A stretch of 32,000 nucleotides of DNA, taken from assembly GCF_900083515.1 (NCBI RefSeq), contig NZ_LT671858.1, forward strand, positions 90,001-122,000. The letters are read 5' to 3'. The translations under genes and the position numbers were made by a program. Of this stretch, positions 4,700 to 24,060 are shown in pieces; the stretch's first letter is position 1; each line of letters opens with the position of its first letter. The notes beneath the pieces are model-generated. The model did not search any database. It saw only the letters and a program-made list of their open reading frames with translations, and was not told where the DNA came from. The DNA is from Cuniculiplasma divulgatum. Lineage in GTDB: Archaea > Thermoplasmatota > Thermoplasmata > Thermoplasmatales > Thermoplasmataceae.

Positions 4700-4731
4700 T
4701 AAAAAGGTCGCCTCCATTTAGTTGGTGGTGA

Positions 4732-4771
4732 AGTATTCACTTAAAACTTTAATTAAATCCCCGCCGGTCCA
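4732..4771 (+). repeat. 40-bp cassette-boundary repeat, copy 1
   Basis: AGTATTCACTTAAAACTTTAATTAAATCCCCGCCGGTCCA. 37/40 identical to copy 4 by hand alignment, with no indels. Confidence 0.9.
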
Positions 4772-4940
4772 CTCTGAATTTTCCTAATTCCTTAATCAAA
4801 AATAACGATGAATTCTTGCGTCAAATTTTCAGGAGGAATTTCTTGCATTCTAATTGCTGTTACACTGAGCCTACATTCAATGCTCGAAGTGACGGCTTGC
4901 AGGTAAATAATCATATACCAAAATACCATTTTTTATTAAC

Positions 4941-5201
4941 ATGAACGTGAAAACGAGTATATCTATAGATAAAAAGATTTGGATGGAACTCAAGAATCTT
5001 GCCTTAGAACGGGGTAAAGACGTAAGCTCCATACTAAAAGATGCTATAGAAAATGAACTGAATTCAAATCTTGACAAATCTTTAATGAAATATTCAATTC
5101 AGGGCACATTTGATTTAGATTTTGAACCCATTAAACCCAAAAGCAAAATATCTGATCTTATAAGGAGCATGAGGGATGACAGAGAAAGTCATATATCTTG
5201 A
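4941..5201 (+). CDS. vapB: Ribbon-helix-helix (CopG-like) VapB antitoxin
   Basis: The N-terminus KTSISIDKKIWMELKNLALERGKDVSSILKDAIE is RHH-like. It overlaps the downstream PIN frame by 26 nt. It is a paralogue of 8067-8351, sharing the C-terminal MR(D/N)(D/E)R.S..S tail. Confidence 0.75.
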   Translation: MNVKTSISIDKKIWMELKNLALERGKDVSSILKDAIENELNSNLDKSLMKYSIQGTFDLDFEPIKPKSKISDLIRSMRDDRESHIS

Positions 5202-5628
5202 CAGTAGTGCCATAATAAAAAGATATGTGTATGAAAACGGATCGTAAATTATTCGTGCACAATATCATGAAGCATATTTTGGAAATGTTCTGCTTTCATT
5301 TAATATATGGAATATTGGGGAAGTAATTGGGATATTTGACAAGGCACATAGACAAAAGAGAATAACAAAAGAACAGCTAAATGTGGTTATGGGCAGATTC
5401 TCAGATGAGACTACAAGGCTTAGAAAGATAGGCATGGTTAGGATAATCCCACTATCAGAAAGGATAATAGAGGGTAGCTGGGATTTTGTAATTAAGTATC
5501 ATATCTATGCTGCTGCTCTACAGATCACAAGTGCCCTTGAAGTTAAATGTAACGAGTTTTATACTGGAGATGAAAGACTTCACAAGGTTACTCTTTCATC
5601 CGGTCTGAAGTCCGTTTATCTGGTATGA
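5176..5628 (+). pseudogene. vapC: PIN-domain VapC toxin interrupted by an in-frame TAA
   Basis: MTEKVIYLDSSAIIKRYVYENGS is followed by TAA at 5245-5247. The same frame then continues IIRAQYHEAYFGN...NIGEV...IYAAALQI...TGDERLH to 5628. It is collinear with the intact paralogue at 8326-8766. The third acidic PIN residue (IVDAIQL in the paralogue) is Ala here. Confidence 0.75.
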
Positions 5629-5683
5629 TAGTTAATGCTTTAATAAACAACAAAACAGCAACTGAAATTAAGTGTTTTAAATT

Positions 5684-5723
5684 AGTGTCCACTTAAAACT
5701 TAAATCAAATATCGACCGGTCCA
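5684..5723 (+). repeat. 40-bp cassette-boundary repeat, copy 2
   Basis: AGTGTCCACTTAAAACTTAAATCAAATATCGACCGGTCCA. 35/40 identical to copy 4. Confidence 0.9.
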
Positions 5724-5909
5724 ATTTAGCGTCAATAAAATTTTTACATTTGGATGAATATCGTAGAATGAGAAAAATTTTCTACAATGTGAGGCATCTT
5801 AACCTTGATAGGATTATCAGAGGGATCTAATCATATACGTTGTTTCGTTTATTTTTTTTAAATTACAAGCAGAATTGATATTATAATAATGATCTATTAT
5901 CTATAAAGG

Positions 5910-6470
5910 ATGAAAAACAGCATGAATAATGGCTTTGATCCATCGGAGAGACAGAAAATCCTAAGAATAGCTATATTCTATGGTATATCCCTTCTTCTGT
6001 CGCTTCTGATCATAGTCATATCCGTGACGTTTTTTGTAATGATTATTTACCTTGAGGGAAAAGTCTCCAGCGAATTCCTATACATTTTTGTCTCAGTTGT
6101 AATAGTCAACTTTGCAATATCGGCGCTATCAATAAGGGGTCTGATGGGCCTTTATGGTTCGTTTCAATCAGAACATACGGACCGCAGAACCATCGTTTTT
6201 TCAATAAACAATAAAAGTCATGCAAGTGCTGAAAGGCCCTCTGCACCAAAGTTAAATCCAGAGTATTTCACAGATTTAGAGCTGGAGATTATAGACATGC
6301 TCAAGAACCATGGAAATAGAATCCTTCAGAGTGATATCGCAAAGACGATCAATGCCTCAAAGGCGTCCATTTCCAGGGTCATTACTTCTCTGGAAAGCAA
6401 GGGAGTCGTCGTCAGGATGAGAAAGGGCGTCACGAATGAAATAATCCTAGTTGAAACCAATTTCAAATAG
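5910..6470 (+). CDS. Membrane-anchored winged-helix (MarR/TrmB-like) DNA-binding protein
   Basis: Two N-terminal TM helices are followed by a C-terminal wHTH, LEIIDMLKNHGNRILQSDIAKTINASKASISRVITSLESKGVVVR. This layout matches COG2512-type archaeal proteins. Confidence 0.65.
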   Translation: MKNSMNNGFDPSERQKILRIAIFYGISLLLSLLIIVISVTFFVMIIYLEGKVSSEFLYIFVSVVIVNFAISALSIRGLMGLYGSFQSEHTDRRTIVFSINNKSHASAERPSAPKLNPEYFTDLELEIIDMLKNHGNRILQSDIAKTINASKASISRVITSLESKGVVVRMRKGVTNEIILVETNFK

Positions 6471-6526
6471 TTTCATGAAACCTGTTTCAGACAACAGTTA
6501 AGTGTTCTTTCAGGATACATTGCATT

Positions 6527-6886
6527 ATGGAAAAGAGAATTGAAAATCTGATATGGGTCCTTATAGGGCTCGTTGCAGTGGTTGCAGCAGTGGCGATCAT
6601 CACTTCCATCTTGTTCGGAGGCCGGTACTACAATGGAGGATACGGACCATATGGAATGATGGGTGGCTTCTATGGTATGGGCATAATAATGCCAATAATT
6701 GGGATAATATCAGTGATACTGGTTCTGATATTTGTATATTTCATACTTGACGCCATTAGAGGTCCAGTCAATTATGTCCATACAGAGAGCATATCCAGAG
6801 CTGAGGAAATCGCCAAAGAGAGGCTTGCAAAGGGAGAGATATCTGAGGAGGAGTACAGGAAGATCATCGAAACGATAATGAGATGA
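6527..6886 (+). CDS. SHOCT-domain membrane protein
   Basis: Two TM helices flank a Gly/Tyr/Met-rich loop. The C-terminal AKERLAKGEISEEEYRKIIETI is the SHOCT (DUF2078) signature. Confidence 0.7.
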   Translation: MEKRIENLIWVLIGLVAVVAAVAIITSILFGGRYYNGGYGPYGMMGGFYGMGIIMPIIGIISVILVLIFVYFILDAIRGPVNYVHTESISRAEEIAKERLAKGEISEEEYRKIIETIMR

Positions 6887-7227
6887 TAATAAAAATGAGC
6901 GCGCATAAAACTTTTGCAATAGTGGCCATATTTTTTTTCGCCGACCAGCAGGTTCACTCTGGCCTCCTTCTCCTTTCTTTCATGCAGCTTCTTTTTCGCA
7001 AAATCATATATTCTTTCTAATGAAAAGCCCACAATATATGGATAAACTTCCTTAATAATTGTAAGTACTTCGCTATAAAAAGCTTGATCTAAAGGGGTTT
7101 ATTTACGGAATATTTATAATCATAATCCTGAAAATATCTCCCAATAAATTGGTTTGTTAAACTATCAAATGAGGGCTGTTCGGGCATTATTGAAGATGGT
7201 CTTTCATAATATATACTTGTTTAAATC

Positions 7228-7267
7228 AGTATTCACTTAAAACTTCAACCAAGTCCCTACCTTTCCA
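7228..7267 (+). repeat. 40-bp cassette-boundary repeat, copy 3 (3' part degenerate)
   Basis: AGTATTCACTTAAAACTTCAACCAAGTCCCTACCTTTCCA. 34/40 identical to copy 4. The CCGG core is lost. Confidence 0.8.
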
Positions 7268-7493
7268 TATTTAAATTTGGTCCCGATGATTAAATATATC
7301 AAGTATTAGCAGACACATACCAAATCAGATAAATAGGTTCTTTGACCATGAGGAAGATAGTATTGTTGTCTGTACTTACCAACTTAGGGTTGCGTCCACC
7401 CGAAGTTTCTAGTGTACCCGGATGTGCGAAGGCTCCATGAAGCGCTGAGGGAAGCTGGGTTCTACAGATTCTTCATTTAAAAGGAGGGAATAG

Positions 7494-7804
7494 ATGATGG
7501 AGCAACAATCCCGGACTAATACCCTGATAAAATTTCATCTGGAAGAATACGAAATGAGTATGAAACACTAAAATATTCCAAGAAAATTAAAGAACTAATC
7601 ATAGGAATATTAGAGAGTGGAAACACTCTTCTTGTCATTGGTGGTGAGGATCTTGCTAAATTGGTGAACTTCTTGGCACCGGGCACTATTGGTGCTGATG
7701 TCACTATCTTTAATCCGGATCCCGACCCGGATGGAAAATATGCTATTTATGTAGTCAAAATTATTTCTGAAGGATTGAGGTACCTCGGCGTGATGCACGT
7801 GTGA
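7494..7804 (+). pseudogene. Frameshifted hypothetical gene (about 99 aa if repaired)
   Basis: A GGAGGG box precedes ATGATG at 7494. Frame 0 stops at 7569-7571, while the +2 frame is open 7520-7804 (…KIKELIIGILESGNTLLVIGGEDLAKLVNFLAPGTIGADV…). Removing the 11-nt unit 7556-7566 fuses both parts into one ORF. Confidence 0.35.
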
Positions 7805-8066
7805 TTTGTTCTGAATGTGCGCAAAGGGAGCACTGATATCCCTAAAGAGGCAACGTTCAGGACTGGAGCGGCCTCAATACTCGGTAATGGGTCCAGCAAA
7901 ACAGACTGGACCGTGAGGGACGAAGACGAAACCGAAGCAAAAGTGCGAACCTCACAATCTTCAGCTGTGAGAGTATGTCAGACCTGTTTATTGCTGTTGA
8001 ATATGTTCTCGGCTAAGAACCAAATGAGTGGAAATACTTAATACGGTTTACCATATATACGGTTAG

Positions 8067-8351
8067 ATGGTTAAAACCAAGATAACTGTATCGGTAGAAA
8101 AACCAGTGGTGGAAAACGCAAAGTTGGCACTATTGAAAAAGGGAAGGACCCTCAGCGACTACATAGAAAAATCACTTCGTTCCCTTTCCACAGCTGAGTT
8201 TCTAAGCGATCTGTGCAAGGAGCTTAATCTCGATTGCGGATACATGAGCGGGGAAGATGTAGAGAAGAACAGGCCTGATCTCACTGGTAGAGTGGAATCG
8301 GAAAAAGAAGTAAGGGAAATGCGAAATGAACGTATCTCACGTCTATCTTGA
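8067..8351 (+). CDS. vapB: Ribbon-helix-helix VapB antitoxin
   Basis: KTKITVSVEKPVVENAKLALLKKGRTLSDYIEKSL is RHH-like. It overlaps the downstream PIN gene by 26 nt. Confidence 0.75.
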   Translation: MVKTKITVSVEKPVVENAKLALLKKGRTLSDYIEKSLRSLSTAEFLSDLCKELNLDCGYMSGEDVEKNRPDLTGRVESEKEVREMRNERISRLS

Positions 8352-8766
8352 TACCAGTATACTAATCAAGAGGTACGTTAAGGAGGAAAACAGTGCCCTA
8401 GCTGACAGCTACTTCCATCAAGCCCATCGAGGGGAGACAGTTATTTGCCTGTCTGAGATCAACCTTGGCGAGGCAGCTGTTGTTTTTGATAAATACTCCA
8501 GGAAAACGGGTATTGACGCTAGAAAACGTCTCCAGGCAATGCTAAGTGAGTTGGCCATACTTGAAAGATCCTCCTCGGTTGAAATATATCCTGTTAGTAG
8601 CCAGATAATAAGGAAAGCTGTCGAGACAGTTCTTGAACAACGCATATACATTGTAGATGCAATTCAACTAGAAACCTGTATTGAATCGGGGACGACTGTG
8701 TTCTGCTCGGCTGACAGGGGACTTAATGCAGCAGCCAGGAAGCTTGGTATAGAAACAGCCCTGTGA
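8326..8766 (+). CDS. vapC: PIN-domain VapC toxin (intact)
   Basis: All four acidic PIN positions are present: YLDTS, NLGEAA, IVDAIQL, SADRGL. Length is 146 aa. Confidence 0.85.
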   Translation: MNVSHVYLDTSILIKRYVKEENSALADSYFHQAHRGETVICLSEINLGEAAVVFDKYSRKTGIDARKRLQAMLSELAILERSSSVEIYPVSSQIIRKAVETVLEQRIYIVDAIQLETCIESGTTVFCSADRGLNAAARKLGIETAL

Positions 8767-8880
8767 GTGCCGTAATATACTTTTTCTCTTCTATTTACTA
8801 AGCTTCCAATCAGGCATAAGTATCAATCCCAGGTATAATGCGAGAACAGCAACTCCCTTCTTGTCCCAAGAACCTTCAAC

Positions 8881-8920
8881 AGTATTCACTTAAAACTTTA
8901 ATCAAATCCCGACCGGTCCA
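8881..8920 (+). repeat. 40-bp cassette-boundary repeat, copy 4 (closest to consensus)
   Basis: AGTATTCACTTAAAACTTTAATCAAATCCCGACCGGTCCA. It contains the 8-bp palindrome GACCGGTC and the imperfect inverted repeat ATTCACTTAAA/TTTAATCAAAT. Confidence 0.9.
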
Positions 8921-8957
8921 TATTAAGTCATCTTGGTCAGGAAACATTTTCTATTCA

Positions 8958-9401
8958 TCATCTAATTTCATCAATTACTTTTATATCCTTGACGTTCTTG
9001 AAAGACTGGTCATGAGTGATGAGGGTGTTGGATCCTACTGACTTCATTGTGGCAAGAATTACACAGTCCCTCGAGCCAAGCCCCATGGAACCATAAGTTG
9101 ACAGAAGATTAATTGACGATTGCATGATAGTAGCGGTGAAATCAACTAGACTAAGAGTTGTGAGGTCAGCTATGATTCTCATTTTCTCGTTCAAAATATC
9201 CGGTGGGATCATCCTAAAGTAGTGTGCTACTTCCATTAAGGTAACAGTGCTGACCACTACATCACCCTGAATAGTTCTTTGCATTACATCGTCAACTGAA
9301 TCATGCTCTGGGAGTCTTTCATCGAACCAGTAAATCCAGTAATTAGCATCTACATATGATAGGACCAATGGAATCTCACTTCCAGATGTGTTTAAGCTCA
9401 A
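8958..9401 (-). CDS. vapC: PIN-domain VapC toxin (intact)
   Basis: Acidic positions are present: YVDANY, LMEVAH, SRDCVILA, ITHDQSF. An internal TTG at 9368 may be the real start. Confidence 0.8.
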   Translation of the reverse strand: MSLNTSGSEIPLVLSYVDANYWIYWFDERLPEHDSVDDVMQRTIQGDVVVSTVTLMEVAHYFRMIPPDILNEKMRIIADLTTLSLVDFTATIMQSSINLLSTYGSMGLGSRDCVILATMKSVGSNTLITHDQSFKNVKDIKVIDEIR

Positions 9402-9630
9402 GAGGATCGCTTAACGGTATCTCAGAACCTTTTTTGATAAATCCTCTCATCTTTACGCGAAATTCATCCGGGGATACAGATTTTTCAATTATTAGACGAT
9501 TGGATTCAATGTACATTTTTACTCTCATTCCATTCTTGAGTCCGAGAGAGTTTCTGACATTTTTCGAGATCACTATTCTACCCTTTTCATCTATCACAGT
9601 CTCTTGTCCCATTCCCACTTCATTTCCCAC
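9376..9630 (-). CDS. vapB: AbrB/SpoVT-family VapB antitoxin
   Basis: IDEKGRIVISKNVRNSLGLKNGMRVKMYIESNRLIIEK is a typical swapped-hairpin AbrB/MazE motif. The gene lies directly upstream of the PIN gene on the same strand. Confidence 0.8.
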   Translation of the reverse strand: MGNEVGMGQETVIDEKGRIVISKNVRNSLGLKNGMRVKMYIESNRLIIEKSVSPDEFRVKMRGFIKKGSEIPLSDPLELKHIWK

Positions 9631-9736
9631 ATATCAAATCAGTATGTAAAGTTTTCGCCGATTTTCAAATTGTAATTATTATGGGATACCGACTGATTTG
9701 AGGGCGAGGAATCTCCATGGATTGCTTGAAGAAATT

Positions 9737-9776
9737 GGTGTTCCCTTAAAACTTTAATCAAATACCGACCGGTCCA
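9737..9776 (+). repeat. 40-bp cassette-boundary repeat, copy 5
   Basis: GGTGTTCCCTTAAAACTTTAATCAAATACCGACCGGTCCA. 36/40 identical to copy 4. Confidence 0.9.
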
Positions 9777-9856
9777 TTTTAATTTTGCTCTTATATATAC
9801 ACCAGTCGGACTTAGAACATTTATGCTCAACTCTCTCGTTGCATTAGATTATGTCT

Positions 9857-10665
9857 TTATTCATGATTGGCACAATTCATCTCAGCGTATCCTTTTACAC
9901 ACTTCATGAGAGTTATAAAACTCGTAAACTCCAGATTATTAAGAGGTTTAAAAGTGTTAGGCATAATACTGGCAATTTTCAACTCACTAACAAAGCCCTG
10001 AAATGAGGTCTTAAATGAATTGAGGAAGCATTACCAAGAGAACCTTCTTAAAATGGTCATACCAGGGAATGTAACTATAATAGATTCCCCCGATGGCAGG
10101 TTATCCAGTGGTAAAATATCGTAAATCCACACTTGCATCAAAATCATACCTTGAACTTGATAAAAAGATTGGAAGAAAATAGTCGAAAACCTTTCTGGCG
10201 CTATAGAAGAATTTCCTGATGATTTAGTAAGTTGCATAATTAATATCCCTCACTTAATTTATTATATTCATTGTAAAAATAAACATTTAACATTATCTCC
10301 TGAATTATACATTCAGGTTTAACGGCCCTTACTGTTTCACCGAATAATCTCTTCATTCCGGGGAAATATATTTCAATATTCCATCTTAGGCCGTAATTAT
10401 TCTTAATCTTCCATAATTTTTCATTGAATCTTTTAATAAATCTTGTAACTTTGCATCTATAGGGAGGTCCCTTAGGTAATGTCGATGAGTTTTTTCTTAC
10501 AGGTATTGCAGTTTTATTTTTTAATTTATTGTAAATTAATTTGAAATCATATACATTATGTCCATATAGTTTCTTTATTTTCTTTTTAATTCATCTTATT
10601 ATTTTTATACCCTCCATGACATCATTGGTATTTTCACTGTGAATAAAGGAAGTCAATAAATATTA
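9857..10665 (-). mobile_element. Decayed DDE (IS4/IS5-superfamily-like) transposase fragments in permuted order
   Basis: Minus-strand frame 10590-10240 reads IKKKIKKLYGHNVYDF...IPVRKNSS...NYGLRWNIEIYFPGMKRLFGETVRA...QEIMLNVYFYN, a C-terminal D...E region. An in-frame TGA precedes it. Downstream on the same strand, 10237-9857 reads like an N-terminal part (…ILRRFSW*CFLNSFKTSFQGFVSEL…) with an in-frame TAA. Confidence 0.55.
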
Positions 10666-10683
10666 TATCACTCTATATTCATT

Positions 10684-10896
10684 ATGAATGCATGTTCTCC
10701 GATTATTAAATTTACAGAAAGAGAGAAAAATGTTTGCAACATAATTTGCAATTCAGGCAAGATAAGATTTATTGATATTAAAAATAAGAGTGGTCTTCAT
10801 CAGGAAATCCTTTCAAGAACATTGAAAAGAATAAAGGATGACTGCGGTATATCTAAATGCATTAATGGTTATGAATGCAATAAAAGTGGTCAATAA
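10684..10896 (+). CDS. Small winged-helix DNA-binding protein (hypothetical)
   Basis: The 70-aa ORF has an HTH-like segment, IRFIDIKNKSGLHQEILSRTLKRIKDDCGI. The local composition is very AT-rich. Confidence 0.4.
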   Translation: MNACSPIIKFTEREKNVCNIICNSGKIRFIDIKNKSGLHQEILSRTLKRIKDDCGISKCINGYECNKSGQ

Positions 10897-10905
10897 ATAG
10901 CATTA

Positions 10906-11193
10906 ATGAATACATTAATTGGTGAGAAAATGGCGGAAAAGGAAGTTGTACAGAAGAATGATGGCGTAGAAATTATAGTGCCAGAAAGTGCAGATGCTGA
11001 TGATATTAATGAGGTTATTAGATCATGTTCCTCAGGCGAAAATTCATGCTCATGCTGTTCTTCTGATTTTTTAAGTGAAAATAAGGTAGGCGTGTATGAA
11101 TTGAACGGGCATGAAGTTATAAAAATAATGGGTAATGTCAAAAAGGATGAAATCGAAAAGAAGATAAATAGCTGTTCATGCTTCGACAAATAA
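10906..11193 (+). CDS. Small acidic Cys-rich protein (hypothetical)
   Basis: The 95-aa ORF contains the clusters CSSGENSCSCCSS and NSCSCF. The probable start is MAEKE at 10930. It follows the wHTH gene by 10 nt. Confidence 0.35.
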   Translation: MNTLIGEKMAEKEVVQKNDGVEIIVPESADADDINEVIRSCSSGENSCSCCSSDFLSENKVGVYELNGHEVIKIMGNVKKDEIEKKINSCSCFDK

Positions 11194-11354
11194 AAATTTT
11201 AAATTTTTTATTAAATTTTATAGTAAGTTGCATAATTCATTTTAATAAAATTTACAATTAAATCTAAGTCAACTGCGCTTTTAAATGGACGGAATTGACT
11301 GGTTTTCTATAACTCCAAAACCCATCAGATTTGGTTCAAATTGTTCGGCATTTC

Positions 11355-11394
11355 GGTATTCGCATAAAGCTTTAATCGAATCCTAACCGGTCTA
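11355..11394 (+). repeat. 40-bp cassette-boundary repeat, copy 6 (most diverged)
   Basis: GGTATTCGCATAAAGCTTTAATCGAATCCTAACCGGTCTA. 32/40 identical to copy 4, with the same register and no indels. Confidence 0.7.
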
Positions 11395-12124
11395 TTTAAC
11401 ATTGATGATCACAATTCAAGAAATACAAAACCATGAGCACTGACTCAATTTTTAATAGGGAACAGAGGAACCAAATGTAATGGTAAGTCCACATGCATGG
11501 TCATAAGAAAATTCTAGAGGTAGTAAGGAGAAATGACAAATTCTCAAGTATTTGTGACTCATGTGTGACAATGTTTAAGAAACACAGGGTTTCGGTAAAT
11601 GAATACCTAAATGGGCACAGAGATTTGGTCTAACTAAATGAAGTTCTTCTTAGTGACAATATCAGGATATATGCGGAGACAATCATGGCATTGTATTCAC
11701 TTAGCTTTTCTATATTAACAAAGGAGACATTTAGCCTTTTTGCAGCCAACCAAAAAACCTATAAATACAGGATAGTTCATCTCAAAATATTCAAAACGTA
11801 CTACAGTTAAGGAAAATTATTCCTGAACTGCCTCTATATAATTTCAACAAAAGACAACAATCCGGTGGTAGAAATACAAGTGAATTTCCTCAATTATAAT
11901 TTTTCTATTCGTTGCAGAATTACATCATTCACTTCTAACCATTTTGTTAATACTTAAAATTCTAAATTATATTTTTTAAACCTAACTGATTGTCTAATTT
12001 GTCCAATATAAGATAAATATGCATTCACTAACGATTCATACATTATGAAACAAGCCTTCTTTTTTGGATAGCATCGACATAAATGTCTGAACACATAAAA
12101 CCGTACTATCCCTAATCTGATATT

Positions 12125-18141: not shown

Positions 18142-18383
18142 TCAGGTCAACATTTTTACATAAAAAATACAACTTTTTTCAGTTCACCTTTCACGCATTA
18201 ACCATGAAATGACATTAAAAAAATAGTGTAATTAGAAATTTACATTAGGCAATCAGACCGCATGTATTATCAACCCTTATTTTAAATTAAAAAATAGCCT
18301 TATAGCCTGTTTCTCTATGATTTATTTTTTACTTTTCATGTAAAGCAGAACATCTTATTTATAGAATATATATTCATTAACAT

Positions 18384-18635
18384 ATGAAAACAGATTTTAT
18401 TAGCCTAAGACTTGACACGAAAACTTCAACAACTGTAAGAAAATTAATCTCACTCCGTTTGGTTAAAACCAAGACGAACGCTCTGAAATTCATAATGAAA
18501 CACGGTATAATGGAAACAACACATATAATCGAAAACAAAGAAGAAAGCCGTAGAATAATAAAGAAATGGAAAGAGGAAGGATTTCCAGTTCTATCTGAAG
18601 ATCTATCAGACATATCGATCAAAGAAAGAGAATAA
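18384..18635 (+). CDS. Putative antitoxin of the downstream PIN gene
   Basis: The 83-aa ORF has an N-terminal beta-strand-like ISLRLD. Its stop abuts the PIN start (TAAATG). Confidence 0.45.
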   Translation: MKTDFISLRLDTKTSTTVRKLISLRLVKTKTNALKFIMKHGIMETTHIIENKEESRRIIKKWKEEGFPVLSEDLSDISIKERE

Positions 18636-19046
18636 ATGAATTATATAGATAAGAATGTCATTCTTTGTTACCTTAATAAAAACGATTTAAACCATGATAA
18701 GGCAGCAAAGTTATGGGCAATAAATGAGCCAAAAGTGATATCTAAAATTACCTTACCTGAGCTTAGGTCAGTTCTTTCAAGGAAAACAAACCTAAGTGAA
18801 GCAGAAATAGAGGCTTATGTTGAACATTTACCCGATATAGGTTTACAAATTGTAGAATCTGACCTAAACAGAGTTTTCAACCGAGCTTCTGAAATGGTAT
18901 TTAAAATTAAAATGAAAACGTTTGGCACTTTGCATATTTCTGCCTGTTTAGAGATCAATGCTTGAAACCTGGTAACACTTGATTACGAGTTTGTGGAAAA
19001 AAATAGAATCATATCTGAACTTGGCATAAACATAGTTTCAAGATAA
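18636..19046 (+). pseudogene. PIN-domain toxin with in-frame TGA (109-aa ORF plus a 26-codon continuation)
   Basis: MNYIDKNVILCY... (PIN N-terminus) runs to ...TLHISACLEINA, then TGA at 18963-18965. The same frame continues NLVTLDYEFVEKNRIISELGINIVSR* with the typical PIN C-terminal lvT.D motif. The Asp normally before LHIA is Gly/Thr. Confidence 0.55.
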
Positions 19047-19262
19047 TCTTTAAAAAATTATGGAGATTTTTGATACATAACCATCTAAATCTCTAAAAAT
19101 TTTTAAGTTGATCGAAAGTCCAAAGTGTTTTTAAAAGGATTCATATTTGAATTTTTCCTTAAATTAGTTGTTAGGTTTTTACTCTAAGTGCAACGTTGAA
19201 GAAAATCTTAAAAATGACTTTGTAACCAATACTCTTCACTTCATATAATAAACATAAAAACT

Positions 19263-22200
19263 CTAAGATGAAAGTAAACTATTAGACACTTCAAGATATT
19301 TTCCAGGTATTGGATTTTTCAGTTTCCATATTATGTTCATTGGTCTACTGCCCTCATGGCTATAATATTCCACTGTGCCAAGGAAAGTATATGGAAATGC
19401 ACCTGTTTTATCTTCTTTATTTTCTCTGACAAACAGTAAAACTTTACTTCCATATTCTTTATGATTTATGTATCTCTTTCCAGTTTTTGAATCGACTGAT
19501 GTTGTGCTTTGGCTTTGCCAATGGAACAATGTATCATTAATCGAGTAATCTTCGTAGAGTGTTGTTGGAGTATAATCCCCTTCTTTCTTGTTTAATGTCA
19601 CAAATAATAAATCTATTTTCCATTTTGGAATGTATTTGACACCTTCTCTCATATTTTCAGGAGAATCAATGTCCATTGCCACTAAAATTTGATCTCTTGT
19701 GTAATTGCAATGTAGGTCAAGCGGGCAATCAAAACCAACATTAACTGGACTGTCCAGGAAATCTATCTTGTCCAGTCTTAGCTCCAGTAACTCTATTATT
19801 TCATCCAGAAATGGGCCACTTGACTTTATTCTATTAATTGCTTCCTCCGGAGATTTAAAACCACATTGGTCGAATGATTTTTTCCAAACAGTGTATTGAA
19901 ACATGTTCAGCATCCTTCGTTCTGTTTGAGACATTTTACTAACATCAGGTAGATTGTTTGATTTAAGGACATTCAATAGGAAGTTAATCCACCTTCGTGA
20001 GTCTATGGAACAAAGCTTAAGAAATGCTTTAGTCATTAAAGTTTCCATGTCACTATTAAAATCAGGGGCTAAACCAGAATCTGCCTTTAATCTTGAAAAA
20101 CTCGTTTTTGAATAGATTTCCCTCAAGTCCAATTGATAATATTCAATGAAATTTTTGAGTGTTAATGGTAGCCCAGTATCTGCAGTAAAAGTGGAAACCA
20201 GGGACTTTAACTTAGATCTTGATCCAACTGCCTGTCTTATATTATCAAGTATAAATTCCTGAGCTCTTCTTTCAAGCTGAATATAGCATCCCTTAGGTAC
20301 ATCTGGAAATCCATCTGTAATCTCTCTTTCCAATCTCATATGGGTCTTAGAAAGCATTGCAGAAAATTTTTCTCTGAAATTATAATTTTTATTAGCCTGT
20401 CCAACAAAATCAAGGACAGTCAGGCAATCTTTTCCCTCAGAAATCCTTAGTCCTCTTCCAAGTTGCTGCAAGAAAATGGTAAGACTCTCAGTTGGTCGAA
20501 GAAACATGATTGTGTTTATACTTGGAATATCCACACCTTCATTATAAATATCCACAGTAAACACAAATTTTATCTCTCCTCTTTCCAGCAACTCTTTTAT
20601 ATTTTTTCTTTCATCATTCTTAGAGTTGCTGTCAATGTACATAGACGTTATTCCATAAGAATTGAATTGTTCAGTCATGAATTTACAATGCAATTGTGAA
20701 ACACAGAATCCTATGCCCCTGACGTTCTTTATATCGTCTACATACTTTGTAAGAGCATCAACTATGTTGCTAACTCGTTCCATTGAAGACCTGTTTCCAT
20801 CGCTATATATCTGACTTAATTGGTCCTTATCATATCCTCCCCTAACCCATTTCACATCTTTTAGATCTATATTGTCCGTTATCCCAAAATACTGGAAAGG
20901 TGATAGCAACTTTCTATCAATCGCTTCTGGGAGCCTCATTTCGGCTGATATTTTGTTTTCAAAATATTTTAGGATATCCTGCCCATCCATCCTCTCTGGT
21001 GTCGCTGTCAGACCAACCAGTATTTTTGGCTTATAATAAGTAAGTAATTGTTGATAACTTGGAGCTGATGCATGATGAAATTCGTCTATAATGATAAAAT
21101 CATAATAATCGCTTGCGGTTCTAGTTGTCATATCCCTTGAGTTGAACATTTGTATTGACATGAAAAGATGATCCAGTCTATTTGGAATATTATCTCCAAC
21201 GCCAATCTCTCCAAAGTTTTGATCCCTTAGCACACTTCTAAAGCAATCTATTGCCTGTTCAAGTATTTCTTTTCTGTGTGATACAAATAGTAGACGATTA
21301 GTTTTCCCTTGATTTTGGGTTCTGAATCTTTTATAATCTAAAGCAGATATAACAGTTTTGCCTGTTCCGGTTGCCGCAACTATTAGGTTTTTATATCTAC
21401 CATGAACAACCCTTTCTGCTTCGAGCCTGTCAAGGATTTCCTGTTGATATGCAAATGGATGTATGTCTGCTATGAATTTTGAAGGATTCTCTTTTCCAAT
21501 ATTTCTTTCAGAATTTATAGCAGAAACAAGTTTATCCCTTTTACCATTTGAATAAGACTCAAAATCATGAGACTCCCAATAACTTTGAAATGTTGCCTTG
21601 ACCTTATTCATCGTTTCTAACATGTCCTTTTCCGTTATTTTTACATTCCATTCAAGTCCACTGGAAATGGCTACATTAGAAAGATTTGAGGACCCTATGT
21701 AAGCAGTAGAAAAACCGGTGTCACGATAAAATATGTAAGTTTTAGCATGTAACCTTGTACGCTTGGTATCATATGAGATTTTAATCTCTGGGCTTTCACC
21801 GTTCTTGTTTTTAAGATTATTCAATTCTTCTATCGATTTTACGTCAGTTGCACCCATGTATGTTGTAGTTATAATCCGAAGTTTACCATTTTTTTCAAAG
21901 AATTCCCTCAATTCATTAATTATTAATCTAATACCACTCCATTTTATGAAAGAAACGAGAATATCAATTCTATCAGATGATAAGATCTCTTTTTTTAGTT
22001 CAGAATACATACTAGGCTCCCTAGATGCCCCAGTAAAGAGAGAACTTTGTGAAATAGAAGTTATTGGTCTTTCTATTTTATCTACTGTGCAACCAAGACT
22101 CTGGCTTTCCTTTTTATCAAAAATCGCCAAAAGGTTTTCAATTCTTTTCTCATGATTATCAGAAATGTTTGGATAGAGATTTTCATCTTTTCCCAGAGAG

Positions 22201-22454
22201 TCTAAAATTTTATTTACAATATCTATTTGCTCACTAATTCCATGTCCACGGCTCCTTACATTATCAAGGGTTTCCCTTATTAACCCACTCAGGTATAAGG
22301 TAAGTACTTTGGAAGAATCATCATCATCTATTGGAGATTTTTGAAAATCAGTATGGTTGGACATAGATTCCAATTCGTTTTTAATCAAATCGTTAATGAG
22401 TTGTTCATAAATCCCTTTCTTGAGCATATCTAAACTTTTAAGTATACTCCCCAT
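19263..22454 (-). CDS. SauUSI-like type IV (modification-dependent) restriction enzyme: PLD nuclease + SF2 helicase + DUF3427
   Basis: The 1063-aa ORF has an HKD/PLD motif (RLHAKTYIF...GSSNLS). Helicase motifs are AATGTGKT, IIIDEFHH, GLTATPER and QQLGRGLR. The C-terminal region (LFHWQSQS...LLFVRE...FLGTVEY) matches my recollection of DUF3427. This is the same three-part layout as SauUSI. Confidence 0.75.
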   Translation of the reverse strand: MGSILKSLDMLKKGIYEQLINDLIKNELESMSNHTDFQKSPIDDDDSSKVLTLYLSGLIRETLDNVRSRGHGISEQIDIVNKILDSLGKDENLYPNISDNHEKRIENLLAIFDKKESQSLGCTVDKIERPITSISQSSLFTGASREPSMYSELKKEILSSDRIDILVSFIKWSGIRLIINELREFFEKNGKLRIITTTYMGATDVKSIEELNNLKNKNGESPEIKISYDTKRTRLHAKTYIFYRDTGFSTAYIGSSNLSNVAISSGLEWNVKITEKDMLETMNKVKATFQSYWESHDFESYSNGKRDKLVSAINSERNIGKENPSKFIADIHPFAYQQEILDRLEAERVVHGRYKNLIVAATGTGKTVISALDYKRFRTQNQGKTNRLLFVSHRKEILEQAIDCFRSVLRDQNFGEIGVGDNIPNRLDHLFMSIQMFNSRDMTTRTASDYYDFIIIDEFHHASAPSYQQLLTYYKPKILVGLTATPERMDGQDILKYFENKISAEMRLPEAIDRKLLSPFQYFGITDNIDLKDVKWVRGGYDKDQLSQIYSDGNRSSMERVSNIVDALTKYVDDIKNVRGIGFCVSQLHCKFMTEQFNSYGITSMYIDSNSKNDERKNIKELLERGEIKFVFTVDIYNEGVDIPSINTIMFLRPTESLTIFLQQLGRGLRISEGKDCLTVLDFVGQANKNYNFREKFSAMLSKTHMRLEREITDGFPDVPKGCYIQLERRAQEFILDNIRQAVGSRSKLKSLVSTFTADTGLPLTLKNFIEYYQLDLREIYSKTSFSRLKADSGLAPDFNSDMETLMTKAFLKLCSIDSRRWINFLLNVLKSNNLPDVSKMSQTERRMLNMFQYTVWKKSFDQCGFKSPEEAINRIKSSGPFLDEIIELLELRLDKIDFLDSPVNVGFDCPLDLHCNYTRDQILVAMDIDSPENMREGVKYIPKWKIDLLFVTLNKKEGDYTPTTLYEDYSINDTLFHWQSQSTTSVDSKTGKRYINHKEYGSKVLLFVRENKEDKTGAFPYTFLGTVEYYSHEGSRPMNIIWKLKNPIPGKYLEVSNSLLSS

Positions 22455-22645
22455 TGTATAAATAACATGCTTACTCGTTTGAAAATAGAATGAATGGTGG
22501 GAATCTCACGTTCCTGATTGTAAGTGAAGTCGGCCATTTGTTGACTTCTTCAAGGAACCAGAGAGATTTATAAAGGAAAATTTCGGGTCATGTCTATTTC
22601 TGTCCATTAAATTTAAAGTTCATTCTATTTTAATTCAAACTAGAA

Positions 22646-23434
22646 TTAAAATAGTATGTTCTCAAGTGTTTTAACAACGGTCAAATTGTCAGGTAGGGGA
22701 TTAACGAGATAAGATAGTTCTGAATTCCATTTCATACGGCTCGAAGCAATTTGTATCTTTTCCATTAGTTTATTTCTTTCAAACTTCTCATTCCTTCTAT
22801 TCATTTTTTCATTAACCAAAGATTCATCATATTTCACTTTTTTTATGTCCAGAAGAAAATATAGATCATATATATCCCTGATCTTGTCTCTTTCTATTAT
22901 GGAAGCAACCTTCTCTGCTACAATTTCTTCAAGATTCAATACAGGTACCAGAAAGAGCGGAATATCCTGATAAGGTGGTAGCATGTACTTATTTTCAGAT
23001 TCCCTTAGAACATCTCTTCTAAGGCTTATATCAATATTTATATTCTGCATCTGTCTTGAACTTTCATAGAGAGGACCCTGAATCCTTAGTTCAAAGTTCA
23101 TTCCCACGACAGTGTCATTTTCCCTGCGTCCCCTATGTTCATTTCTGTTAATGATGTATTGCTTCCCAACACTTTCCATGACTGTTTCAAATTTCCTGTT
23201 TATTTTTCCTCTTTCCATGGAATTGTTCTCACCTGTGTAAGAGAAATCAAGATCCTCTGAAAATCTGTTAAGATTGTAGAAGTATTTTAGTGATGTACCT
23301 CCCTTGAAAATTAGTTTGTAGTCAAAAACCCTGTAAATCTCGAAGAGCAGAAGTGTAAGAAGATAGTCCTTTTCAAGCTGCCTTGCATCTCTGAATCTTC
23401 CAGACTGCTTCAGAAGATCGCCCGGATCAATCAT
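22646..23434 (-). CDS. abiEii: AbiEii/AbiGii-family nucleotidyltransferase toxin (DUF1814)
   Basis: FKGGTSLKYFYNLNRFSEDLDFSY is the family's NTase motif. The gene is 262 aa and lies 2 nt downstream of the AbiEi-like gene. Confidence 0.85.
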   Translation of the reverse strand: MIDPGDLLKQSGRFRDARQLEKDYLLTLLLFEIYRVFDYKLIFKGGTSLKYFYNLNRFSEDLDFSYTGENNSMERGKINRKFETVMESVGKQYIINRNEHRGRRENDTVVGMNFELRIQGPLYESSRQMQNINIDISLRRDVLRESENKYMLPPYQDIPLFLVPVLNLEEIVAEKVASIIERDKIRDIYDLYFLLDIKKVKYDESLVNEKMNRRNEKFERNKLMEKIQIASSRMKWNSELSYLVNPLPDNLTVVKTLENILF

Positions 23435-23436
23435 TT

Positions 23437-24060
23437 TTAATCACCTTCTGATCTTCTAATTTCATCATCCTCATAAAGCAGCTTAGAGAGTTTCCTGTTC
23501 ACACTTCCAGAATTCATTCTATGGGCGTACTCCCTTAACACTTTGAGGTTCAACATTGAATTCTGTCTGGATAAATCGAAAGCTTCTTTTACATATGAGA
23601 AAGCAGGTATATTCAGATAAAGGGAATCAAGGATTGCCTTTTCTATGGAGGCTATGTAGGCATTCTGTACTCTATTGAATCCAAAAAATCTTTCTCTTCC
23701 AATCGTCCTGAATTCAATTATATTTTCACCAAGGTTAATCTCCCTGTGCCTTTTAATTGATATAACGCTGTATTTTTTAATAACCTGATCTGTAACTGAA
23801 TAATATTGGAATGCAGCGAATAGACTTATGTATGATGGAAAAACAATCTGGGACGCAATCTCATATAGATTATCTCCTCTTGAAGAGCTTATGAAATACA
23901 GTCCTCTTTCAATTCTTTTCACCTTTCTGTTGGACGATAATATCTTGGAAACATATTTTTTTGGTTTTTTCATAAGCATTGATGCATCATTTATTGTGAA
24001 TACAGTTTTTCCATGTAACTGTAATTCTTCAAGAGTATCCATAACTCTGTTGTAAATCAT
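23437..24060 (-). CDS. abiEi: AbiEi-family antitoxin / transcriptional regulator (COG5340-like)
   Basis: The 207-aa ORF lies immediately upstream of abiEii. An N-terminal wHTH-like region is followed by a C-terminal domain, and a 13-bp inverted repeat lies just upstream. Confidence 0.7.
   Translation of the reverse strand: MIYNRVMDTLEELQLHGKTVFTINDASMLMKKPKKYVSKILSSNRKVKRIERGLYFISSSRGDNLYEIASQIVFPSYISLFAAFQYYSVTDQVIKKYSVISIKRHREINLGENIIEFRTIGRERFFGFNRVQNAYIASIEKAILDSLYLNIPAFSYVKEAFDLSRQNSMLNLKVLREYAHRMNSGSVNRKLSKLLYEDDEIRRSEGD

Follow-up and report, generated by a model that had tools for sequence, protein, structure and literature searches.

The 32,000-nucleotide stretch of the Cuniculiplasma divulgatum chromosome analyzed here (contig NZ_LT671858.1, positions 90,001 to 122,000; hereafter the window) carries, at positions 19263-22454 of its minus strand, a gene whose product is very probably a SauUSI-family restriction endonuclease, modification-dependent (type IV) and stand-alone. 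SauUSI is a Staphylococcus enzyme that uses ATP to cut foreign DNA containing methylated cytosine. Every feature that defines this family at the level of sequence was found in the predicted protein, from which a substrate of 5-methylcytosine or 5-hydroxymethylcytosine (5mC/5hmC), ATP dependence, dimerization and a role in defense can be predicted. The parts of the gene, with residues numbered from the first ATG of the open reading frame (ORF), are the following.

19263-22454, minus strand: the whole ORF, putative SauUSI-family type IV restriction endonuclease (Pfam, phmmer, PADLOC).
22427-22429, minus strand: codon of M10, the probable true start (N-terminal matches start at residue 10; archaeal ortholog starts).
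22080-22426, minus strand: N-terminal extension, residues ~11-125, four predicted helices and then a disordered linker (AlphaFold2, AF2; conserved in the subfamily only).
21567-22013, minus strand: PLD-family nuclease, residues ~148-296, with H236, K238, N257 and E268 (Pfam PLDc_2/RE_NgoFVII; SauUSI alignment).
20223-21464, minus strand: SF2 helicase-like ATPase/translocase, residues ~331-744 (ResIII and Helicase_C; aligns with SauUSI 1A/2A and HsdR 3H1T).
19713-20222, minus strand: predicted alpha-helical coupler, residues ~745-914 (collinear with the SauUSI coupler, 618-805; all-helical in AF2).
19266-19712, minus strand: putative SRA-like target-recognition domain, part of DUF3427, residues ~915-1063 (DUF3427; SauUSI alignment; beta-rich in AF2).

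The ORF is single and intact, with 1063 codons from ATG1, no internal stops and its stop codon at 19263-19265. An earlier note on this DNA, made from the letters alone, had read it as a 1063-residue protein joining a PLD/HKD nuclease, an SF2 ATPase and a DUF3427-like domain, and Pfam bears this out: RE_NgoFVII/PLDc_2 (residues 154-293), ResIII (331-488, E = 1.7e-36), Helicase_C (566-671) and DUF3427 (852-1052, E = 9.5e-27), all above their curated cutoffs, lie in that order. The resulting layout is a PLD nuclease, an SF2 ATPase, a helical coupler and a DUF3427/SRA-like reader; the SauUSI domain limits used for comparison, including those of the coupler, were taken from PMC7913695, and the AF2 model gives the coupler a predicted local distance difference test score (pLDDT) of 85-94. 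The real start is probably M10 (window position 22427), giving a protein of 1054 amino acids, because nearly all matches to residues 1-130 among representative proteins start at query position 10, the orthologs in archaea have 1054 amino acids with MLK as first residues, and immediately 5' of ATG1, ~32 nucleotides before ATG10, there is a TATA-like TTTATAC. The position of this box fits a transcript that is probably leaderless.

The closest relative of known structure is SauUSI itself. Compared with all PDB sequences by phmmer, the protein gave its best match to 7CLG_A (SauUSI; E = 8.3e-77), a single collinear alignment of query residues 151-1036 with chain residues 42-920, and the next matches (HsdR 3H1T, RadD and XPB) covered the ATPase core only. 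Furthermore, the PADLOC model for type IV restriction enzymes (mREase_IV, PDLC03659) matched residues 129-1056 with 717 bits (E = 8.6e-216), so that the SauUSI architecture proposed in the earlier note stood up to both comparisons. NCBIfam returned only subthreshold matches confined to the ATPase, the HsdR/EcoAI model reaching 120 bits against a cutoff of 550. The features of type I (HsdR) and type III (Res) enzymes were likewise missing: the nuclease is of the PLD and not the PD-(D/E)XK type, and no Mod or HsdM/HsdS gene adjoins it.

Since the phmmer alignment with 7CLG uses SauUSI's own residue numbering, the roles described in the literature transfer directly, and conservation was counted in an alignment of 68 homologs. 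Mutation of H119, K121, N139 or E150 abolishes cleavage by SauUSI (PMC3141236); these residues align with H236, K238, N257 and E268 here, of which the last three are present in 68/68 homologs and H236 in 67/68. The SauUSI Walker A lysine, K255, corresponds to K366, and the helicase motifs GTGKT (363-367), DEFHH (457-461, the DExH box), TATP (483-486, motif III) and QQLGRGLR (663-670, motif VI) are invariant (68/68). Thus, the catalytic motifs, described earlier as intact in appearance, are intact by alignment. For the reader domain, a 5mC pocket formed by Y831, F841, I842, D858 and W868 was proposed from the SauUSI crystal structure, with M829 as a wedge that occupies the space vacated by the flipped base (PMC7913695). 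The pocket residues align with Y941, F951, V952, D969 and W979; D969 and W979 are found in all 68 homologs and F951 in 65 of them, and position 941 is aromatic in every one.

The predicted structure points the same way. Foldseek placed 7CLG as the best match to the AF2 model (E = 4e-34, ~950 columns), and realignment with VIA ranked it first as well (Z = 20.1, model 148-1059, chain 39-953) and as the sole chain spanning all domains. Superposition on the SauUSI crystal structure and a search with the DUF3427 model had both been named in advance as checks, and each agreed with the family assignment. The gene is under purifying selection, as the ratio of nonsynonymous to synonymous substitution rates (dN/dS) against the 78%-identical ortholog of a sister species (G010) is 0.073, a rough figure given that dS, at 1.8, is near saturation.

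If the protein works as SauUSI does, two subunits would dimerize through their PLD domains to build one H-x-K active site. The SRA-like domain would flip a 5-methyl- or 5-hydroxymethyl-cytosine of incoming DNA into the pocket of aromatic residues and aspartate (Y941, F951, D969, W979), and the base lodged there would switch on the SF2 ATPase. The ATPase would then translocate on double-stranded DNA and carry the nuclease to distant sites, where repeated cuts would leave the modified DNA fragmented. Host DNA would be spared because the sole C5-methyltransferase homolog of the genome has neither motif I nor a start codon, so that the chromosome probably carries no 5mC.

This homolog is the one PF00145 (C5 DNA methyltransferase) locus of the genome (G000:C1:1384206-1385702, L001:823-2319). 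Motifs IV (PCQ), VI (ENV), VIII, IX and X are kept, and the match covers model positions 63-321 only. The remnant of motif I reads FFAGRTPF, against the expected F-x-G-x-G-G, and lies two codons after a stop; no start codon precedes the listed TTG, and the ~900 bp upstream contain no ORF of at least 80 amino acids. The locus is most likely inactive and probably a pseudogene, so that the host is probably without 5mC. S. aureus USA300 likewise has no intact C5 methyltransferase (PMC3141236). Of the N4/N6 methyltransferase homologs elsewhere in the genome, three are intact and two broken, and a single type I methyltransferase is also present; DNA carrying N4-methylcytosine or N6-methyladenine is cleaved poorly or not at all by SauUSI (PMC3141236). 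The broken N4/N6 homologs lie at G000:C1:844317-845183 and 1556099-1556485, one of them split by a TAA and the other with seven stops.

Several observations nevertheless weigh against the assignment. The equivalent of the SauUSI wedge M829 is Val939. The AF2 model of the whole protein is mediocre (pLDDT 69, predicted template modeling score 0.39) and fails to reproduce how the domains are arranged. With only 23-26% identity to SauUSI, both the modified base and its sequence context could differ. Moreover, in a second family of the class (f12), a full-length C5 methyltransferase occurs in 9/18 genomes with a SauUSI-like gene, compared with 10/17 without one. Because half of the f12 carriers hold both genes, the absence of host 5mC is not a general requirement, the degraded methyltransferase seen here may be a coincidence, and the sequence-context specificity of these enzymes must often permit the two to live together. 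The question of how the host avoids its own enzyme, raised in the earlier note along with an inventory of C5 methyltransferases, is thus simply answered here (the sole PF00145 locus is degraded at its N terminus), but the answer does not extend to the class, where intact C5 methyltransferases often coexist with such genes.

These points feed an alternative that we regard as unlikely, namely a SauUSI-type machine of another specificity, reading either a different modified base (a hypermodified cytosine, or a mark of archaeal viruses or plasmids) or 5mC outside the S5mCNGS context. The low identity to SauUSI, the exchange of the wedge methionine for valine and the variation of the Y831 equivalent among Y, W and F within the subfamily would all be in keeping with it, as would the genomes of f12 that combine both genes, implying diverse specificities. 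Against it, the residues predicted to contact and stack on the base, D858 and W868, are invariant as D969 and W979, and the aromatic side chain with a predicted role in sensing the methyl group is kept. As for an anticorrelation between the gene and C5 methyltransferases as a general rule, it was dropped. Within the genus, complete PF00145 matches number 0 in the 5 genomes that carry the gene and 3 (plus 1 interrupted by a stop) in the 10 that do not, a weak trend on small numbers from related and often incomplete genomes, and the f12 counts show no trend.

The taxonomic spread of the gene is patchy. The gene sits on a complete chromosome of 1.94 Mb that is archaeal, the Rfam archaeal small-subunit rRNA model winning the clan competition with 1501 bits, so the archaeal origin suspected from the sequence alone is correct. 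The closest named relatives with orthologs are Thermoplasmata and Thermoplasmatales metagenome-assembled genomes. Full-length copies occur in 5/15 genomes of the genus, two of them 78-100% identical and three 55-57%, and relatives at E <= 1e-40 in 25/299 sampled Thermoplasmata genomes. The host's own family has the long form in 6/31 genomes, and f12 has the gene in 18/35, mostly in a short form of ~955 amino acids that has no N-terminal module. The bacterial homologs that carry a name are from Firmicutes (such as Desulfitobacterium, Dehalobacter, Syntrophomonadaceae and Oscillospiraceae) and reach 57-58% identity over 99% of the length. In a quick maximum-likelihood tree, an archaeal clade of 17 rows has a support of 100, all 21 archaeal rows group with a Shimodaira-Hasegawa approximate likelihood-ratio value of 86, and the sister of this group is a bacterial clade of 54 rows (support 97). 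Because the archaeal sequences form a clade of their own, the transfer between domains was not recent, and a recent arrival from Firmicutes was rejected; the only outgroup is a long branch, so the tree does not fix the direction of transfer. The 55-57% versions (L005, L006 and L007), which come from three species of the genus, are no closer to this protein than the bacterial homologs are, and the tree splits the versions into separate sub-lineages of the archaeal group. Such a pattern points to repeated acquisition, or else to exchange among archaea.

This scatter bears on a housekeeping role, in which the protein would be a helicase-nuclease of DNA repair or replication restart and not of restriction. 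The SF2 core does resemble the repair helicases RadD and XPB/Rad25, but those matches span the ATPase core only and fall far under the family cutoffs, and the gene is limited to 5/15 genomes of the genus and 25/299 of the class, with different loci in sister species near insertion sequence (IS) fragments and toxin-antitoxin or abortive infection (TA/Abi) genes; we give this alternative very little credence. Decay does occur among relatives in two other genera of the family: G016 has a 661-residue frame (L008, G016:C1:815783-817669) covering residues 10-630, and G020 a 79-residue C-terminal remnant with a TGA (L009, G020:C1:1549544-1549777). That the present copy is itself an inactive relic, its frame open but its function lost, is nonetheless highly improbable, as its 1054-codon frame is intact, all catalytic motifs are kept and dN/dS against the ortholog is low. 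The SauUSI family thus has a lineage established in the Thermoplasmata, which travels as a single-gene cassette and is subject to gain, relocation and decay.

In the window, the gene stands between an AbiEii gene (22646-23434) upstream and an ORF with a PIN domain, ending at 18965, downstream. The intergenic gap was earlier put at about 190 bp on either side; this holds upstream (191 bp), but the downstream gap is 297 bp. Its description as a lone gene within a TA/Abi islet is borne out by the AbiE and vapBC-like neighbors, and no methyltransferase was found among the Pfam-scanned ORFs of the window, all gene-flanking ORFs included, nor among the neighbors of two orthologs. The AbiEi position, immediately upstream of AbiEii, is taken by a 207-residue ORF (23437-24060) that has no Pfam match at E <= 1. 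On the other side, at 18384-18965, an 83-residue ORF with no Pfam match abuts the 109-residue PIN-domain ORF, the two forming a vapBC-like pair.

Comparison with the sister species G010 delimits a larger unit.

18157-22652, no strand assigned: 4.5-kb insertion relative to G010, comprising the vapBC-like pair and the restriction gene (synteny with G010).

The G010 contig has the same order as the window (LigB, helix-turn-helix/major facilitator superfamily, pyridine-nucleotide disulfide oxidoreductase, AbiE, DUF6058/ArsR and P-type ATPase) and no insertion. The segment is read as an insertion because its flanking genes are contiguous in G010, with only 645 bp between the oxidoreductase and AbiE. 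The G010 ortholog of the restriction gene is on the same contig, ~30 kb away. It lies ~1.7 kb from two fragments of an rve-family IS integrase (L014:3549-4253) and near a gene for a UvrD-helicase/PD-(D/E)XK fusion. The guanine-plus-cytosine content is 0.33 in the insertion, compared with 0.40-0.42 in the flanks and 0.373 genome-wide, and the gene alone lies at the 11th percentile of genome windows; no flanking repeats or att sites were found around the 4.5-kb insertion. In other genomes, the orthologs have unrelated neighbors, which fits a single-gene system. The restriction gene is probably a mobile single-gene defense cassette, set in a small islet of low GC alongside AbiE and VapBC-like modules. 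Elsewhere in the window, at 4727-11399, small gene cassettes alternate with six co-oriented copies of a 50-nucleotide element, spaced 856-1653 bp apart; none of this repeat family lies near the restriction gene.

The part of the protein with no counterpart in SauUSI is its N-terminal module. The earlier note had described 130-150 residues that it could assign to no family; the failure of Pfam to assign them persists, whereas the size comes down to ~110 residues, because the start is most likely M10 and the PLD domain of SauUSI itself starts ~40 residues ahead of the aligned segment. In the AF2 model the module forms four helices, the first three with a pLDDT of ~80, and then a disordered linker. 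The module is conserved only in a "long-form" subfamily of Firmicutes-type bacteria and Thermoplasmata. A search with residues 1-130 against 1.8 billion representative proteins gave 221 matches at E <= 0.001; the 50 of these that were aligned all come from the same enzyme, as N-terminal fragments or frameshifted pieces that in many cases extend into the PLD region, and among them there was no evidence of the module in other architectures or as an independent unit.

Profile and structure searches did not identify a family or fold for the module. No Pfam family lies above cutoff in it, DUF3939 and V-SNARE_C being the subthreshold matches. When 50 family members were scanned singly against Pfam, a helical dimerization domain, DNTTIP1_dimer, recurred below threshold in 20/50 (best E = 3e-4), and no recurring match to MazG, PRA-PH, NUDIX or HIT appeared in the 50 N-terminal sequences, a single member giving a subthreshold NUDIX_4 match (E = 9.5e-4). 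The conserved residues G14, Y16, E17, Q18, E46, Y54, Q76 and N81 do not form an EExxE...ExxD pattern, the acidic metal-binding signature looked for in an all-alpha NTP pyrophosphohydrolase of the MazG/HisE type. Foldseek against the PDB returned 0 matches for the module, and what the ESM Atlas returned was limited to pieces of this enzyme family. With VIA-wide, the matches were generic helical hairpins at Z <= 6, often from dimerization domains and all under the noise level quoted for helical models; one chain of an NTP-pyrophosphohydrolase, at Z = 5.0, falls inside that helical noise. By these comparisons the module appears as a subfamily-specific helical addition, and our best guess is an extra dimerization or regulatory element. 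More tentatively, and with some doubt, it may be an undescribed functional element, either a second interface for dimerization or oligomerization or an autoinhibitory or sensor element that alters the assembly or licensing of the PLD active site. In that case, the mechanism of the long-form enzymes would not be the same as that of SauUSI. The module is the sole feature that goes beyond routine annotation, and it marks a large uncharacterized subfamily.

It is important to place this find among what is known. Homologs of SauUSI in archaea have already been reported (2011, PMC3141236; 2021, PMC7913695), so an archaeal SauUSI homolog is not new, and the find is sound but ordinary. What it adds is a well-supported and, judging from its sequence, probably active type IV restriction enzyme in the defense inventory of a Thermoplasmata archaeon. 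If active, the enzyme would in practice hinder the transformation of such organisms with DNA from Dcm+ Escherichia coli.

Among known systems, NgoAVII and CglI share the PLD nuclease with this protein, and NgoAVII/CglI, HsdR and Res share an SF2 translocase of the same lineage. However, NgoAVII/CglI and the type I and III motors are multisubunit, rely on B3 or HsdS/Mod for recognition and have cognate methyltransferases, none of which was found here. The Firmicutes entries named "DUF3427 domain-containing protein", for which no experimental characterization was found, share the N-terminal module and form the sister clade in the tree. PADLOC PDLC03659 begins at residue 129 of this protein and leaves the module uncovered. 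The short-form genes of f12 come from the same archaeal class and have the PLD-SF2-DUF3427 order at the length of SauUSI; they are 28-39% identical, and their alignment begins at about residue 140, so that they have no such module. The nearest system remains SauUSI of S. aureus USA300 (7CLG; PMC3141236, PMC7913695, bioRxiv 10.1101/2025.10.16.682607). Unlike it, the present protein has an archaeal host and the extra ~110-residue module with its four predicted helices, the acidic position of HxK(x)4E is Tyr or His in its subfamily, Met829 of the wedge is replaced by Val, and no NUDIX or other nucleotide-hydrolase partner adjoins the gene. In both, nevertheless, a single polypeptide holds the same domains in the same order, with no adjacent methyltransferase and with the H/K/N/E residues, the Walker A lysine, the DExH box, motif VI and the Y/F/D/W pocket all conserved.

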